Assembly (NCBI GenBank): GCA_964255285.1 | Contig: CAXUUL010000054.1 | Coordinates: 1-44,254, forward strand | Direction of reading: 5' to 3' | Length of the DNA: 44,254 bases | Origin: Ionaspis alba | Lineage: Eukaryota | In this document: in pieces, positions 12,634-23,077 of the stretch | Layout of the letters: the number at the start of each line of letters is the position of its first letter | Position numbering within the stretch: position 1 is the stretch's first letter | Made by a program: the position numbers and the translations under genes | Notes under the pieces: generated by a model | What the model was told of the DNA's origin: nothing | Seen by the model: the letters and a program-made list of their open reading frames with translations, nothing else | The model's database searches: none

Positions 12634-14635
12634 CTAAGCGTCTAATTTGAGCCGCTCAAGCAGTGCATCAATCTTCCCTAGCAGGATCTGGTAATTGATA
12701 GCATCACCGGCGAACTCATCCCCGGCGAGCTCGCCGTCCAATGTTCTCACAGCTCCGTTCAGAAGCTGACTTTCCATATCCAAGTCTCTACCTCCGCTGT
12801 TCTTGATCTTGTGATCTGCAACCGTACCGAGGTCAATCCCCTCGTCTTCTTGGGCCTTACCATGCCCAGAATCAGACATCATGACCTCGGCACCAATATC
12901 TGTTGTGATCTCGCCGTTCTCATCCATCATCTCTTCAATGCCCGAGTCCTCGAACCGCAGCCTGAACCGTTCAGAAAGATAATGACGGATGTCATCGAGC
13001 AATTCTATGCTGTCCGTCTCTTGCCTGCTTTTGATCCTTGCGGCACTCTCTCTTATCAAGTCAGCGAAGTCTTCCTCATCGATGTAGCGTTCCAGTCTAT
13101 AAGCGAAGTAGCGGGCTGCAAACTCTTCTAGACGTGGCACTCGTGTGAGCCAGCCAGCGCGCAGAACATCGTAAATATCAATCGGATCGTCTTCCTCGTC
13201 TGTGGTTATGCCAGTACTTGCATCCGGTTGTGATGGTAGAGTCGTCATAGCGCCATTCCCTAGAGTGGATATGACGACAGCGGCTTTGACTTTCAACTTG
13301 TCGATGAAAAGGAGATCTGCAGCATACAAAACATCGACAGCAAGATCTAGGGAGAACTCTGCTCTTTCCGTATAGAGATAAGTAAGGACGACTTGTAGGA
13401 CTTCCGGTGAACAGCCAATCGGGATTATTTGGAGATGGGGTGTAACTTGGGCTTCAAGAAAGGAGGAGGAGAACATGGTTTGAAAATACTCGGAACGGAG
13501 CAGCATAGCACGATGCGCAGGAAACACAGTGGATAGATGACGAGAGCGAGATCGAGATGGAGACCGAAGCCTCGAAAGCGGACCTATAGGAATGCCGTCT
13601 GTAATCGGTGTAGCAGTACCGCTTCGATCCTCACTGCATTCCTCCTGTGGATCATCTGCTTGGAGCAAGACGTCTGCGAAAATAGCGTTGTCTCGATCCC
13701 ATTTGATCTCGTTCACTTTTGATGTGTCTATCATGATCTTGTGTTTCACCACGTTCTCTGTAAACCAAGCATCAAGCTGATTTCTCCCTTTCTCTACCTC
13801 TTCCGTCCTGTTCTGCCGTGCGAGACGGCGATCCGAACTCTCGAGTATACCATCCCAGAGACTACGAATCTCTAACTGTTTGCTGATTTTGTCTATTCCT
13901 TCAAGGATATCCTCTTCTGTGTATCCAGTCCCTGGTCCGCCTCCAACATCGTTCGGGATTTCGCCCAAATAGACGTATCTGATTGCCACCTCGAAGGCTT
14001 GGGGGGGAATGGTCGGGGGCAATTTCCAGGAAGTCGTGTCAGGGGCGTTGCGAAGTTTCTTCTGAAAGTATGGCGATCTTGCAGATAATATAAACTTATG
14101 GAGATTGAAAGATCTGCCCGTGGAGGTAACCACAATATCGGACGTCTTGGGATGCTCTCGTAGCAGAAGCGAAGTGATGTGCGAGGCCAGTGGTTGCAAA
14201 GGATCTGTGGATTTCGAGTAATCATATGCCAGAAGCAGGTTCCGTATTCTGTCGTTGAGGGCATTGTAGAGACATCTCTCGCCCTGGAACGTATCACGCT
14301 CACATAGCGCTCCTGACTCAAGCAGTAGCTGGACGACTTCGTAGTGACCACAGAGGCTGGCCTTTGATGCTTTAGTGGTGATTCAGAAAAGCAGTCTCTG
14401 AACGGAAACGCACCAGTATCAGTGGAGTATAATCAAATTGATCTCGAGCGTTTATGTTTGCTCCATCAGTGATCATCTCCTGGCACACCTTGAGATCCCC
14501 TCGTCGGCATGCTTCGCACAATAGGCGAAATGGTTCGCTGACATCGAGGGGACTGTCTTCTTTGAGTCGGCCATCCTCGATGAGCTTCTTTTCTTCGTGG
14601 AGACTTGCTTCAAGCTGGTCCTTCCTCAATATCAT
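12634..14635 (-). CDS. Ankyrin-repeat plus double BTB/POZ protein (ABTB1/Btb3-like putative Cullin-3 adaptor)
   Basis: Exons 14635-14414 and 14361-12634. ANK motif LCEACRRGDL..NINARDQFDYTPLIL|ASLCGH; BTB motifs FNLHKFILSARSPYF and FPAHRAMLLRSEYF. Confidence 0.9.
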
Positions 14636-15208: not shown

Positions 15209-16531
15209 TCAGGCTTTCAAGGTTGGGCTGACAACCTCAATGCTGCTAACATCGCTTTCCACTTTGGGTACTGGCTTAGCCTTCATTAGCGGCCAGTGAC
15301 CATTCTTCTCGTTGTATCTCATTGCAAGGAATGTGATGATAACGACAAGCCAGTACATGTTGTACGAGATGACTGAGCCATAGGTGGCAGAGTTTTGCCA
15401 GCCGAACAAGGCTGTGAAAATCCCCCAACCTCCTCCGCCATTAATTTGAGGATTGCAGCACTAACATTGTCTGTCAATCCCACGACCGAAATTCTAAACG
15501 TCTTGGGAAAAATCAAGGCTACTCACATTGACATGCCACACACTTTTACGAATGTCATAAGATCCAGGTCCCGATCCGGATTCAGAGGAGTCACCACCAG
15601 TGACCGCATTCCACTGATATCTCTTAGCCTTGAGTCATATTAATCGGTGTAAGGATGTCTTACCTTATGAGTTTCGAAAAGCCAGACAGCCTTTGAGAAG
15701 AGCCCCGCAGCTACCAGATACAGAAAACAGGTGGAAATGATCAGGAAGGTCTGAATTGAGCCGACATTGCCGCCTCTACTCCTCGTTAGGCTCAGCCCAT
15801 GCAGGATTGAAATGGGGCTCACTTGTAGATGAAAAAGCCGACCAAGCATCCAAGTCCGATGCCACTCAAGACAGCGAGTGGAAAGGAAGTGGCGGGAAGG
15901 CCCAAGCTCACGCCTCCCATGAAGATGACTGCTTCCAGTCCTTCCCGAAGGACCGTGATAAATGGAAGGATAAACATGGCATATTTCTCGCACCAGATCT
16001 TGAACCTAGTGCCTGCACTGCCACGGCTGGTACTGTCCTTGGACTCGAGGGCTCTTGCTAGCTTCACTCGCCATTTGTCCTGAAGTTTAGAGATACGAAG
16101 AAGAGCGGCACCCATGAGCGTGATGATGATGGCAGCAATCAAGCTGAAACTCCCTTCCCAGACATCCTCGGTGCCCGACCAGTGATTCTGGCCGAGTCGA
16201 TAAAAGGCACCGATGATGCCTCCACCAACTATCAGACATATCAATCCCCCGAGGCCAGTACCGAACCAGACCTGAGAATTGTTAGTGAAAGGGCGTTACC
16301 GATACAAAGCGATCAGCAATTCTACCTGGCGTCTTAGCCTTTTGTATGTAGTCCTATCTCGATCAGGCCCGAGACTTTGCTTCAGAAACGCCAACAGAAT
16401 TGAGACAATGACACTTGTTTCGAGAGTCTCACGAAGACATAGGAAGAAGACTGGTCAGAAAGTCAGCATTGAATAGATCTACAGATACTTGGGTCACGAT
16501 GCTGACCTGGTGCAGCGAACACGCTCGACAT
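15209..16531 (-). CDS. FTR1: High-affinity iron permease FTR1
   Basis: Six exons starting [19 protein letters not shown]. Two RExLE motifs (RETLE, REGLE), [21 protein letters not shown] and [11 protein letters not shown]. Confidence 0.95.
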
Positions 16532-18078: not shown

Positions 18079-20241
18079 ATGGTTTCATTCGATCTTGGAG
18101 TATCTTTGCTGCTCATTCTCTGCAATTCTGCAATTTTCGTTCGGAGCGCTACCGTGACATATGATTTCAATATCACTTGGGTCACTGCGAATCCAGATGG
18201 AGCCTTGGATCGTCCAACCATTGGCATCAACGGTCAATGGCCTATTCCACAGATCACTGCTACCGTTGGGGATCGTGTGGTCGTCAACGTCGAGAATCAG
18301 CTGGGGAATCAGAGCACAAGTTTGCACTTCCACGGGCTCTTCATGAACGGAACTACCCATATGGACGGGCCAGTAGGAGTCACTCAGTGCTCCATTCCTC
18401 CAGGAGGGACCTTCAAGTATGACTTCAAGGTAAGTAACATCTCAGTAGAGGTCAGCGATGTTGCTAAGGTGGTCAGGTTGAACAAGCCGGCACATACTGG
18501 TACCATTCCCATGCCAGCGGACAATATCCAGATGGTCTACGAGGTCCATTAATTGTGCATGATCCCAAATCGCCGTACAAAGGACAGTACGACGAAGAGC
18601 TTATATTGACCCTCTCGGATTGGTACCACGATCAGATGCCCGGTCTGCTGTCAACTTTCATCAGCGCAGTCAATCCTTCAGGTGCAGAGCCAGTTCCCAA
18701 TGCCGCATTGATGAATGAAACACGCGATCTATCTGTGATGGTAAAGCCTGGGAAGACTTACATGGTCCGTATGGTCAACATGGGCGCATTTGCCGCTCAG
18801 TACTTCTGGTTCGAGGGGCATACGATGCGCATCATTGAAGTCGACGGCGTCTACACTGAACCTGCTGAAGCAAACATGATCTACATTACGCCAGCTCAGC
18901 GATACAGTTTCCTGCTCACGACGAGGAATGATACTTCATCGAATTTCGCGATTATTGGCAGCATGGACAAGGTGAAGCCATCAAATTCATTGAAAGACTA
19001 GAAAAATCGCTGACGCTCCTCTAGGGGCTGTTCGATAAAGTCCCTACGACACTAAATCCCAACGTCACAGGATGGTTGGTCTACGACGAAGCCGCCTCTC
19101 TCCCAGAACCGACCATTATCGATAAATTTGCGCCATTCGACGATTTCACCCTCGTACCCCATGACGGTCTCGAGCTGTACGACAAAGTCGACCATAGCAT
19201 CACCCTCAATTTCCGCATGGGCATGCTCGGAGACGGCGCCAACTAGTACTTCTCTTCCCCCCTCACCCATTCTCATCCGGCTAACCCACTCCCAGCGCCT
19301 TCTTCAACGACCAAACCTACACCCGTCCCAAAGTCCCCACTCTCTACACTGCCATGTCATCTGGTTCCCTCGCCACGGACGTCTCCATCTACGGCAGCGC
19401 GACAAACTCTTTCATCCTCAAGAAGAACGACGTCGTAGAAATCATTCTCAACAGCGAAGATCCGGGCAAACACCCCTTCCACCTCCACGGGCACGACTTC
19501 CAAACCATCGTCCGCTCCACCGAAGATTCGGGGCCATACGTCGGCAACAAGACATTCCCCAAGGTTCCAATGCGCAGAGATGTTTTCGTGGTCGAGCCGA
19601 AGGGGAACATCGTGCTGAGATTCAAAGCCAATAACCCAGATAAGTTTCCCTGAACCTCGACTCTTGAAAAGTCTAGCTCACGAGTAATTCTACGCATCTG
19701 GCTCTTCCACTGCCACATCGAATGGCACGTCAGCTCCGGCCTCGTCGCGACGATGATCGAAGCACCCGAAGAATTACAAAAGTCCTTGACGATCCCCGAA
19801 GACCATCTCAAGGTCTGTAGAGACCAGGGTGTAGCGACCATCGGCAACGCCGCGGGCAATTCGCAGGATTTCTTGGACTTGAAGGGTGAGAGATTGCCGC
19901 CGCCGGATCTGCCGGCTGGATTCACTGCTCGTGGGATCGTGGCACTGGTNNNNNNNNNNNNNNNNNNNNNNNNNNNNNNNNNNNNNNNNNNNNNNNNNNN
20001 NNNNNNNNNNNNNNNNNNNNNNNNNNNNNNNNNNNNNNNNNNNNNNNNNAAGTGCGTTCTTGGGGCTCGCGGTCATTGTTTGGTAAGTCAACTCTCTTTG
20101 GCAGCGAACAGTCGTGAAAGATGTGGGTAACAGTGCTGACGTGGATGTGATAGGTATGGTGTTGGGGAGATTGGAGCGAGTGAGGTGGCAGCTACGAAGA
20201 GAACGATTGAGCAGGCGGTCGGTGCGACGGCTTCGAAGTAG
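18079..20241 (+). CDS. FET3: Multicopper ferroxidase FET3
   Basis: Signal peptide; [18 protein letters not shown] and HCHIEWH copper motifs; GAEPVP and NSEDPG Fe-site acids; C-terminal [25 protein letters not shown]. Exons 18079-18429, 18477-18971, 19025-19245, 19296-19639, 19694-20082 (contains N gap), 20154-20241. Confidence 0.95.
19640..19693 (+). other. Putative non-canonical AT-AC intron with U2-type signals in FET3
   Basis: ATAAGT...GCTCAC..TTCTAC, 54 nt. Removal joins AAC CCA G|GC ATC TGG CTC TTC CAC TGC CAC = NPGIWLFHCH; retention gives an in-frame TGA at 19651. Confidence 0.75.
19950..20049. other. Scaffold gap (100 N placeholder) inside FET3 TM-coding segment
   Basis: Run of 100 N; flanks GIVAL / SAFLG imply only a few codons are missing. 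Confidence 0.95.
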
Positions 20242-20595: not shown

Positions 20596-22113
20596 CTAGA
20601 CTACTTCAACGCATAGTCCACCATGGTGAAACTTTCGTCTGTGGAAATCTAGATTGTCTCTCGTGTAGATTTCGGCGCAACCAGGTGCGAGACACGCATA
20701 TAGGATTGCGGAAGTAGCGTATGTGGTGTAGGAGACCTTCGAATATTCTTCATCGAAATCGGGGTTTGTGGTGTTGAAGAACGACAGATCCTCCACCGTG
20801 GGAGGAGGGGGTGGATGGGTCTTTTTCGCACGAACACAAACCCTAACATTTCTAAATAAGGCGATGTCTTCGTCAACGAGGTGGTCATTGCTACCATCCT
20901 GGTTGTCGAAGATCTGCTCCGTGTCAATTCTCAACTGTCCTAGCGGGGCTTGGTCGCCATCTGGTACAGGGGAAGCCACTGCTTTGGCTTTTCTGGTAGG
21001 CTCGACAAACCACACCCTGCAGCGAGAACTAAAGCCAAAGTTAGTGCTCCATAAGAAGTTTCTCGTTTGGACGGATGGCCTCCGTTGGAATTGGGCGTAC
21101 CACGTGTAGCCCCCACCCATTGCCGCACTGAATGTTTCCGATACACATTGAGGCATGGGACAACGTTCTTGAGAATTGAACTCTTGCCCCACGATGGCTG
21201 CCATCTTGATATGCGCTCCTGGTAGGAAGCCCGCCCACTGCTCATTCGTGATCGATGAAGCCGCGTTTCTGACGTCGAAGAGTTCATATTGCTTGGCGAG
21301 AACCAAACGATGACCGGGACCGCTCCGGAACTGGTCTCTGATAATGGCTGTGACCATACCGTAGTTGTATTCGGATGGGATTGGTAGGACACGACCTAGC
21401 GCATCTTCGAACTTTACAGGCTCTTGAAACCAGGTAAACCTGTGATCTGGAGGAGGTAGTCGGGTTTGCGTGTGAAGCACGATATCTTGGATTTGGAGAT
21501 TCGACTGCAAAATATGGTTGGCAAGATCGAGAAAACTGTTAAGCTGGGAAGCTATATTGATGTTAAGAGTCTGGGAGAACTGGGAGAGAAACAACTGTTG
21601 GCTCTGCAGCAACGCTGATTGAGTTTCTTCGATTCTCTTGACAAGATCATTCCGGTCTTGAGCTGACTGATCCGCAGCCATGGTCAACATTTCTAGACCA
21701 TGAGCCATCAACATCATGTTGATGCTTCCAATGTGTATATTTAGATAATTCCGCAGCTTCAAGGCCTCGTCCTTCTTGGAGAGGCCCCATCGTATTTTTG
21801 TCTCCAGGTTCGAGATCTTGCCTCTTGACGGACCCAATCCGAGGCTTGCTTCGTACTTCTTGATCTTGGTGAGAAACTCAGCTAATGGATGTTTGCACAT
21901 CAGAGCAGCACATTTGATGGCATTGATCGCCGGCTCTTGGTCTCCACCAAGCGGAACCTTGAGCTTGTCGACATGTTGCAAAGCTCGCTGAAGGTTTCCT
22001 AGTTCACGGAGGAGTTCCTGATACTCGGCTGGCGAGTCACGAAGGGTGGCGACGACATCCGTAATGAGTCTCCCCACGGAAATGAAATCACTAACTGAAA
22101 AGCCAAACGACAT
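20596..22113 (-). CDS. HeLo-like N-terminal domain + fungal ubiquitin-like domain + Zn ribbon + C-terminal C2H2-like finger
   Basis: MSFGFSVSDFISVGRL.. N-terminus; WFQEPVKFEDALGRVLPIP..GPGHRLV..YELFD..FLPGAHIKM ubiquitin-like block; CPMPQC..GYTC|SRC after removing 72-nt GTACGC..CTAAC..TAG intron 21100-21029; terminal CLAPGC..HRRKFH. Confidence 0.8.
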   Translation of the reverse strand: MSFGFSVSDFISVGRLITDVVATLRDSPAEYQELLRELGNLQRALQHVDKLKVPLGGDQEPAINAIKCAALMCKHPLAEFLTKIKKYEASLGLGPSRGKISNLETKIRWGLSKKDEALKLRNYLNIHIGSINMMLMAHGLEMLTMAADQSAQDRNDLVKRIEETQSALLQSQQLFLSQFSQTLNINIASQLNSFLDLANHILQSNLQIQDIVLHTQTRLPPPDHRFTWFQEPVKFEDALGRVLPIPSEYNYGMVTAIIRDQFRSGPGHRLVLAKQYELFDVRNAASSITNEQWAGFLPGAHIKMAAIVGQEFNSQERCPMPQCVSETFSAAMGGGYTWYAQFQRRPSVQTRNFLWSTNFGFSSRCRVWFVEPTRKAKAVASPVPDGDQAPLGQLRIDTEQIFDNQDGSNDHLVDEDIALFRNVRVCVRAKKTHPPPPPTVEDLSFFNTTNPDFDEEYSKVSYTTYATSAILYACLAPGCAEIYTRDNLDFHRRKFHHGGLCVEVV

Positions 22114-23077
22114 CGTAAGCAGATCCGCGACTCGAGGAATGGTAGGCCATGCAAATTGGAAAACAAGACTCTGCAGAGGACGGTCTTCGAAGTTGTGCCA
22201 TTGTTGTGGCTCAGCCTCGCCTTTAGCCTTGTGTAACAGCGGAAGCTTGGAAGGGCAATGCCGAATGGAAGTCCTTCAGAGAGCCTCGACGTTTTGTGTA
22301 TTGAGGCATCTGAAGGGCATGCTCGTAGGTATCGGTCTGATGCTCTATACCCTCGAGGCCGACCAATGCCAAGCGACGATGCTAGCAGCTCGAGTAGACT
22401 TGCTTTGCTTGATGATATTCTCGACTCGGCCTGCATGGACTAACTAACTCACCTACGACGGAGACGCTATCTCGATCTTCCAAGGCATCATCACGTCACT
22501 GCCATCGATTGCCAGGCTCTTCCGTCATCATCGCATTAACCAATTTCCCCAATTGCGCGTACCTTTATCCTGGACCCCAAAGCCTGTACCTCGACACAAA
22601 ACGATCATCGCTTTCTTCACATCGGATCATAGCATTATTTTACATGTGATTCTTGTTCCTGGTATCCCGTTCCGTCGATCCATTGCGCCGGCTGGGAAGC
22701 ATTCATTCGTCCCTGGACCCTGACCAGAGCCCGACCAGTGGAAATAGTATCGAAGTTCCAGAGCGGCAGTTGGGTGTCGATCTTTGCCCTGCTGAGACAA
22801 CCCGTTGACGTGCGCTGCACCGCCACTGCAGTTCTGGATTCCAGATGCCCATGACTTGGTCACCCCGAAAAAGTTGAATAGCATTATTCGAGATCGACAT
22901 CAGGAGGTAGATCCGGCGAAGAACGAGCTGAAGATTTAAAAATAATTCCTATCCTTACCTGGCGCTCTCTCGTTCTCTACAAATATCATAGCATCTCCAA
23001 CTCTTGCCTCTCGGCTTTCCCTCCAACCACAAACCGCGCCCCCACCATCATCGTCATTGCTTTCTCGAGTTGCAGCC

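Follow-up and report, generated by a model that had tools for sequence, protein, structure and literature searches.

A probable U2-type AT-AC intron ahead of the copper-ligand motif of a FET3-type ferroxidase gene in Ionaspis alba and its relatives

We analyzed a stretch of 44,254 nucleotides (nt) from Ionaspis alba (GenBank assembly GCA_964255285.1, contig CAXUUL010000054.1, forward strand), referred to below as the window. It carries a gene for a FET3-type multicopper ferroxidase and, divergent from it, a gene for an FTR1 iron permease. Our subject is the fourth intron of the ferroxidase gene, which begins with AT and ends with AC and lies directly ahead of a copper-ligand motif. The features at the locus are as follows.

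18079..20241, plus strand: FET3-type multicopper ferroxidase gene (gene model and translation, six exons)
18079-18429, 18477-18971, 19025-19245, 19296-19639, 19694-20082 and 20154-20241, plus strand: exons of FET3 (gene model)
19640..19693, plus strand: intron 4, 54 nt, phase 1 within the Gly codon of NPG, with AT at its 5' end and AC at its 3' end
19637..19645, plus strand: 5' splice site CAG/ATAAGT, the U2-type consensus CAG/GTAAGT with A at +1
19651..19653, plus strand: in-frame TGA met on retention (translation with the intron kept)
19676..19681, plus strand: GCTCAC, the presumed branch site; its A at 19680 would be the branch point and lies 13 nt from the 3' end
19694..19949, plus strand: start of exon 5, coding for (G)IWLFHCH and onward as far as the gap
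19950..20049: 100-N assembly gap within exon 5, 257 nt downstream of intron 4
15643..16295, minus strand: FTR1 iron permease gene, in two open reading frame (ORF) pieces (Pfam PF03239, E-values 2.5e-36 and 2.3e-06)

The translated FET3 exons match three Pfam domains, Cu-oxidase_3, Cu-oxidase and Cu-oxidase_2, and the copper motif HCHIEWH is encoded in exon 5. In a comparison of exons 2 and 4 with solved structures, the closest was yeast Fet3p (1ZPU), well ahead of the laccases, with E-values of 3.6e-54 for exon 2 and 5.2e-35 for exon 4, against 4e-31 and 3e-11, respectively, for the best laccase. Because the Cu-oxidase domains and the best match to 1ZPU come together with an adjoining FTR1 gene, we assign the gene to the FET3-type ferroxidases. 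A glutamate and an aspartate of the window protein align opposite E164 and D388 of the 1ZPU chain; given a 21-residue signal-peptide offset, these would correspond to E185 and D409 in yeast precursor numbering, which we take to be the acidic iron-binding residues of Fet3p. The FET3 start at 18079 is separated from FTR1 by a spacer of ≈1.8 kb, and the two genes form the classic divergent pair of reductive iron uptake. FTR1 appears in two ORF pieces and therefore contains at least one intron. All six exon frames of FET3 are open, and its other four introns (47, 53, 50 and 71 nt) are all GT-AG. Within exon 5, a putative membrane anchor runs for 10 residues into the 100-N gap and for 11 after it, and both parts fit the consensus of relatives, GIVALVFSxxxAFLGxAVIxW, with the middle missing. 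Comparison with these relatives suggests that the gap probably hides only ≈4-5 codons of the GIVALVFSxxxAFLG membrane segment.

Intron 4 reads ATAAGTTTCCCTGAACCTCGACTCTTGAAAAGTCTAGCTCACGAGTAATTCTAC; the upstream exon ends with ...AATAACCCAG, and the downstream exon begins with GCATCTGGCTCTTCCACTGCCAC. Excision of 19640-19693 joins ...AACCCAG to GCATCTGG across the junction 19639^19694 and restores NNP-G-IWLFHCH. The Cu-oxidase_2 profile agrees with these borders, as exon 4 stops at profile position 110, the Trp of exon 5 falls on position 113, and the split Gly and the following Ile fill positions 111-112 exactly. The chain of 1ZPU is likewise uninterrupted at the homologous place, where ...ADNP456 is followed by GVWFFHCH. 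Because the Gly of NPG is invariant and the Pfam profile closes without a gap, the borders of intron 4 are fixed. When all in-frame, stop-free pairs of GT, GC or AT with AG or AC near the site were enumerated, only 19640-19693 yielded NNPGIWLFHCH. There are 16 in-frame, stop-free GT-AG pairs around the site, and every one removes residues from the conserved strand or motif or adds residues to it.

A previous description of this locus, made by a model from the DNA alone and called here the sequence-only reading, had placed an AT-AC intron with U2-type signals at 19640-19693, between NNP and GIWLFHCH of a FET3-type ferroxidase. Comparison confirms the placement, and the restored motif, the closure of the Pfam profile and the homologous introns described below support the intron itself. 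The same reading had correctly stated that retention would truncate the protein before the HCH copper ligands: translation into the intron reaches the TGA at 19651-19653, and the product ends in NNPDKFP, ahead of both the HCH ligands and the membrane anchor. Such a product would be without the type-1 Cys and three His ligands. It had also judged the size of the intron to be in keeping with its neighbors, and 54 nt, with the branch A 13 nt from the 3' end, does sit among the lengths given above. Its statement that 19644-19676 is the only in-frame GT-AG alternative does not survive, since 16 such pairs were found, none of which restores the motif.

U12-type introns have a ATATCCTT-like 5' site and a TCCTTAAC-like branch site 10-15 nt from the 3' end. 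The 5' end of intron 4 is ATAAGTTT, which is not ATATCCTT-like, and its 54 nt contain no TCCTTAAC-like box; the sequence thus bears out the earlier view that U12 signals are lacking. Judged by its sequence, the intron agrees with the U2-type AT-AC class on every point and falls outside the U12 class. We consider it highly probable that intron 4 is a genuine U2-type (type II) AT-AC intron, with A as its first base and C as its last.

The sequence-only reading had proposed that the two end bases be checked in read-derived data, and both A19640 and C19693 are present in a Logan contig of run X1 (record 5, 637 nt, word depth 91.6). This contig spans 19526-19949 and differs from the window only at 19830 and 19831. 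Over the 1871 bases compared, the window and X1 show 11 differences; nine of them fall within 150 bases at window 19135-19285 (the end of exon 3 and intron 3), and the other two are the adjacent pair at 19830/19831. The clustered differences could reflect clustered polymorphism, a second haplotype or a strain difference. A low-depth X1 contig carries ...AATCCAGGT directly before ATCTGG, and the homologue that it represents is therefore without the intron. In a contig of run X2, from another organism, ...TTGCTGACCAGCACCAC stands before window position 19699, and GTGTG separates it from the TGG of the motif; the stretch resembles the end of a further intron in AC, whose candidate branch site, CTGAC, lies 10 nt upstream. 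In run X4, two contigs begin to match at 19692, two bases ahead of exon 5. Both close-matching contigs of run X3, which we guess to be RNA, lie inside exons 1 and 2 and bridge no intron.

To compare the same site in relatives at the DNA level, we scanned metagenome contigs with an alignment of exon-4 homologues, obtaining 579 pattern matches that included 475 confirmed relatives. The best 80 of these were all classified at the boundary between NP and G, ten loci missed by the motif search of the script being read by hand. An intron of the form ATAAGT...AC occupies the homologous phase-1 site in seven of the 80 loci: L004, L007 and L062 (52 nt each), L005 (86 nt), L050 and L051 (67 nt each) and L069 (66 nt). 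Two further loci from two different assemblies, L006 and L041, have a 52-nt ACAAGT...AC intron at the site. A complete GT...AG intron is found in 12 loci, a GT donor whose 3' end lies outside the locus in two, and a GT-AG intron shifted by 2 nt in one. The remaining 56 lack an intron at this position; in some of them introns occur nearby, and one locus breaks off 7 nt past the site. The suggestion to inspect this intron in FET3 orthologs thus uncovered AT-AC, AC-AC and GT-AG forms at the homologous position. The sequence-only reading had called the intron rare and natural, which falls short of its extent, since the same AT-AC intron recurs in many relatives.

The two ends of the intron change together. 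Among the window and the 80 loci, 10 introns begin with A and end with C, 12 begin and end with G, and 0 are mixed. The exon end CAG, which includes the Pro codon CCA, and AAGT at +3 to +6 are kept in 10 of 10 A-first introns (nine loci and the window), the donor being ATAAGT in eight and ACAAGT in two. The donors of the GT introns at the same site vary (GTGAGT, GTATGT, GTAAGT, GTAGGT, GTACGT, GTAAGA, GTGCGT). The CCA codon, present in all 10 A-first cases, is used by 6 of 14 genes with GT introns (Fisher p 0.006) and by 14 of 55 without the intron (p 1e-5), both p values ignoring relatedness. The other introns of the carrier loci are ordinary GT-AG introns. The carriers have a CTGAC or CTAAC branch motif 10-13 nt before the end of the intron, except for L005, which has TTGAC at 8 nt. 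In L004 and L007, GCTGAC lies as far from the 3' end as the GCTCAC of the window, and the two align without gaps.

The AC-AC introns lie at approximately L006:1564-1616 and L041:2843-2895, read ACAAGT...CCCAC, and are flanked by exons that are 95% identical; no GT-AG alternative in these loci keeps the frame. They represent the AT-AC form with a further T-to-C change at +2, analogous to that of GC-AG introns. In L005, a single uninterrupted tblastn segment (L005:1331-2842) covers query residues 19-470, with the 86-nt AT-AC intron retained, and introns 1-3 are therefore absent from this locus.

At the protein level, the 114-residue exon-4 query gave 1106 matches among the longer public predicted proteins, of which we examined the best 120. 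These are 60-73% identical to the query and come mostly from lichen-forming Lecanoromycetes. Contiguous NPG(I/V/L/A)W..HCH is present in 81 of the 120, and a further 10 have NPG followed by intron-like sequence (GT donors). Homology breaks off after NPD(K/M/E/N) in 25 of the 120, as expected from in-frame reading of G/ATAAGT, G/ATATGT or G/ATGAGT. These NPD(K/M/E/N) readings therefore indicate an A-first donor, since a GT donor would read NPG. Proteins of this type come from Lecanoromycetes, Dothideomycetes, Xylobotryomycetes and Pezizomycetes, with examples in Mycoblastus sanguinarius, Lasallia pustulata, Xylographa trunciseda, X. vitiligo, Sarcosagium campestre, Candelaria pacifica and Sarea resinae and, farther afield, in Cirrosporium novae-zelandiae (Xylobotryomycetes), Neodothiora populina (Dothideomycetes) and Tuber brumale (Pezizomycetes). 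Alectoria fallacina and Usnea florida likewise count among the presumed carriers.

The predicted proteins also report on the 3' end. Where a gene model reads both borders, the residue before (I/V)W is Arg (C/GN, last base C) in 8 of 8 D-type models and Gly (G/GN) in 3 of 3 G-type models, with 0 mixed. Two proteins, P0082 and P0114, read the whole intron out of frame, and back-reading of their codons implies ...CAC and ...TAC before the exon. Some annotated models force GT-AG pairs and thereby add residues ahead of HCH (NPDNSRIW, NPDEASRIW, NPDMS...SRVW, ...SPRIW). Among proteins P0003-P0117, the FET3-like models that end at the intron or read into it number 25 of the 120; FET3 models are truncated or carry spurious residues because gene finders reject the non-canonical intron, and the error is thus systematic. 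Four ORFs from Logan contigs, P0050, P0052, P0065 and P0077, encode 598-609 residues with contiguous NPGIW, on contigs of which the longest are 2.5-7.6 kb. P0077 is 92.9% identical to P0095 over 465 residues and P0065 is 94.2% identical to P0110, P0095 and P0110 being genomic models from Alectoria and Usnea that have the intron. We suspect that the four are transcript assemblies of Parmeliaceae relatives; they belong to other species and hence give no direct proof for the window.

A quick maximum-likelihood tree was built from 74 loci and the window, leaving out six loci with fewer than 380 of the 555 query columns (L011, L014, L018, L020, L037 and L044). In this unrooted tree, the window falls in a group of 17 rows together with L004, L007 and L005 (AT-AC), L006 and L041 (AC-AC) and 11 intronless genes. 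L069, L050 and L051 form a separate, early-branching AT-AC group, L062 (AT-AC) sits on a long branch elsewhere, and the GT-AG forms are placed in other groups. Forcing the 10 A-first rows together costs 80 log-likelihood units (approximately unbiased (AU) test, p 0.019), and this p value is optimistic because the group was named after the tree was seen. The shared site and ends indicate that the AT-AC state is inherited and not a private accident. It is either old, with several switches to GT-AG or losses, or has arisen more than once, and the unrooted tree fits both histories. If the NPDMS read-through of Tuber is what it seems, the AT-AC state reaches the base of Pezizomycotina. Taken across the aligned loci, the intron is a family-level feature that recurs and is probably old, with perfect covariation of its two ends and an AC-AC derivative.

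Selection on the downstream exon bears on whether the intron is removed. Exon 5 is open in 9 of 9 carrier loci and continues as (I/V/A)(W/Y)LFHCH in frame. Among the window, L004, L007, L006 and L041, the nonsynonymous divergence (dN) of exon 5 is 0.02-0.25, with synonymous sites saturated or nearly so. Its ratio to the synonymous divergence (dS), omega, is 0.09-0.18 in the 6 of 10 pairs for which dS is computable, dS being saturated in the other four; the range is the same as in exon 4. Such constraint on exon 5 in carriers is hard to explain otherwise and therefore argues for precise excision. From this purifying selection, we infer that the window transcript would be spliced at 19639^19694. 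The stricter consensus around the deviant terminal base points to recognition by U1 and U6, that is, to the major pathway.

In the mechanism that we propose, U1 and then U6 would recognize CAG/AUAAGU, consensus-like except at +1, and U2 would pair with GCUCAC, 13 nt upstream of the 3' end. The C at the last position would let the second step accept an A-first intron, with an A-C contact taking the place of the usual G-G non-Watson-Crick contact. Precise removal would then give a full-length Fet3-type ferroxidase able to partner the neighboring Ftr1 permease. A change at a single end would cripple an important gene, so that the two sites would lock one another in place and no regulatory role would be needed. 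The simplest reason for the persistence of AT-AC is thus that either end, changed alone, would be harmful.

Several points weigh against a U2-type AT-AC intron that is spliced as proposed. Among the Logan contigs of runs X1-X4, none joins 19639 to 19694, so splicing there is inferred, and X1 may come from the same sample as the window or a close one, which leaves its independence uncertain. The branch motif of the window, CTCAC, is a weak variant that deviates from the CTRAC of the relatives. The counts of loci and proteins are phylogenetically non-independent, and the protein-level intron states are read from gene-model artifacts and not from DNA. Removal by the major spliceosome is a deduction from the literature on Pezizomycotina; a search of the 44-kb window with Rfam, the rest of the genome lying outside the search, returned 0 matches.

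Other explanations of the end bases fare worse. It is scarcely credible that both are sequencing or assembly errors. The 100-N gap, 257 nt further on, would favor this; against it, errors would have had to strike exactly the two terminal bases at the same time, the X1 contig at word depth 91.6 has the same bases, and A-first, C-last ends also occur in nine loci from other assemblies. We would give equally little credence to a U12-type intron removed by the minor spliceosome. The AT-AC ends would suit it, but the intron opens with ATAAGT instead of ATATCC, lacks a TCCTTAAC-like box and has the branch motif CTCAC (CTRAC in relatives); its GT-AG homologues carry U2-type donors of the ordinary kind at this site, and U12 splicing is absent from Pezizomycotina according to Bartschat and Samuelsson (PMC2846911). 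It is very unlikely, if less so than either of these, that a cryptic GT-AG or GC-AG pair is used, such as 19644-19676 (33 nt) or 19612-19671 (60 nt), giving a variant protein. In-frame, stop-free pairs do exist, and annotation pipelines picked analogous ones in relatives (the NPDNSRIW, NPDEASRIW and NPDMS...SRVW models); against this, each pair alters a segment that is contiguous both in the Pfam profile and in 81 of the 120 listed relatives, GTTTCC and GTGCTG make poor donors, and 33 nt is below the 47-71 nt of the other introns of the gene. A dead or dying gene copy, in which both splice ends have mutated and the intron is never removed, seems to us just as improbable as a cryptic pair. The absence of RNA evidence and a branch motif weaker than in relatives would be in line with decay, but all six exons have kept an open frame, the remaining four introns have canonical ends, an intact FTR1 partner lies close by, and the changes at the two ends, exactly those that suppress one another, are common to relatives.

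A different proposal adds to the U2-type AT-AC reading and does not replace it: AT-AC may be kept because slow or conditional splicing throttles the output of Fet3. Retention does give a stop ahead of the copper ligands, A-first/C-last double mutants of yeast are reportedly merely rescued, to below wild type, and the state persists across lineages with saturated synonymous sites. On the other side, the two-site lock accounts for persistence without any function, 11 of the 17 rows in the window's own clade have no intron, and other clades have GT-AG at the same site. An intron lost in most of the nearest relatives and GT-AG in others is therefore dispensable, which argues against an indispensable regulatory role, and we regard the throttle as unsupported and unlikely. 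The bolder version is similarly improbable in our view, namely that AT-AC is an old state of Pezizomycotina FET3 that predates the split of Pezizomycetes and has been kept by the lock together with a slow or conditional removal that tunes ferroxidase against Ftr1. A U2-type AT-AC intron held in place by its two ends, with no need of a regulatory role, remains our preferred account.

Two other ORFs of the neighborhood, both on the minus strand, have recognizable domains. The one at 12637-14382 encodes a BTB/POZ-domain protein (E-value 7e-25), and that at 20599-22275 encodes 559 residues with a ubiquitin-like ULD_2 domain (E-value 6.5e-11).

The literature describes several systems with which the FET3 intron can be compared. 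U2-type introns of the "AT-AC II" kind follow the major 5' consensus except at +1, and those of SCN4A/SCN5A are conserved from human to pufferfish (Sheth et al. 2006, PMC1557818). The FET3 intron resembles these in its AT-AC ends, its otherwise major-type 5' site and the conservation of its borders over long distances. It differs in being fungal, very short and in another gene, and the use of the major spliceosome has been shown by experiment for the vertebrate introns and is proposed here. Xylanase genes of filamentous fungi were once suspected of containing U2-type AT-AC introns (PMC1557818), and AT-AC is a minor class in fungal annotations (Frey and Pucker, PMC7072748). For Fusarium graminearum, two AT-AC introns and one AC-AC intron have been described (FGSG_08743, FGSG_10073 and FGSG_01223), seven non-canonical sites having been confirmed by Sanger sequencing (Zhao et al. 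2013, PMC3577648). Those introns are also from Pezizomycotina, are short, and have the same pairs of ends as the window (AT-AC) and as L006 and L041 (AC-AC). They have different gene identifiers, and the text available from Zhao et al. gives no cross-species conservation.

In yeast, a change of the first G to A is rescued by a change of the last G to C (PMC1557818). The FET3 intron has the same pair of base changes, and its 10 A...C, 12 G...G and 0 mixed introns are a natural counterpart to that suppression. The mutual suppression of first-G-to-A and last-G-to-C in yeast is said to go back to Parker and Siliciano in 1993. Unlike those laboratory mutants, the states of the FET3 intron are natural and long-lived. 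GC-AG introns have a stricter consensus around the deviant terminal dinucleotide (PMC1557818). The terminal mismatch of the FET3 intron also goes with a stricter 5' site, CAG/AYAAGT in 10 of 10, although its deviation lies at +1 and the last base and not at +2; L006 and L041 carry both (ACAAGT). With U12-type AT-AC introns, the FET3 intron shares its terminal dinucleotides; it has neither ATATCCTT nor TCCTTAAC, and its host group is reported to be without the minor spliceosome, U12 splicing being missing in Ascomycota/Pezizomycotina according to Bartschat and Samuelsson (PMC2846911). In the open-access literature, to which our search was confined, we found no paper tying an AT-AC intron to FET3, ferroxidases or multicopper oxidases, the matches to "AT-AC" being mostly strings of polyketide-synthase domains. 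U2-type AT-AC introns are already known, Fusarium included, and their recurrence in FET3 relatives is the added result.

For annotation, the consequence is that roughly one-fifth of the listed public FET3-like models (25 of 120) are mis-annotated around the HCH region, which biases any inventory of the iron-uptake genes of ascomycetes, lichen-forming or not. For splicing, the FET3 intron would show the first-base/last-base rule of the major spliceosome at work in nature and in several lineages, one site being AT-AC, AC-AC or GT-AG with no mixed pairs, and it is ready material for work on splicing efficiency. Should the AT-AC state prove to be both old and tuned, the three forms at this one site would constitute a natural series for studying the interplay of the first and last bases in the major spliceosome.

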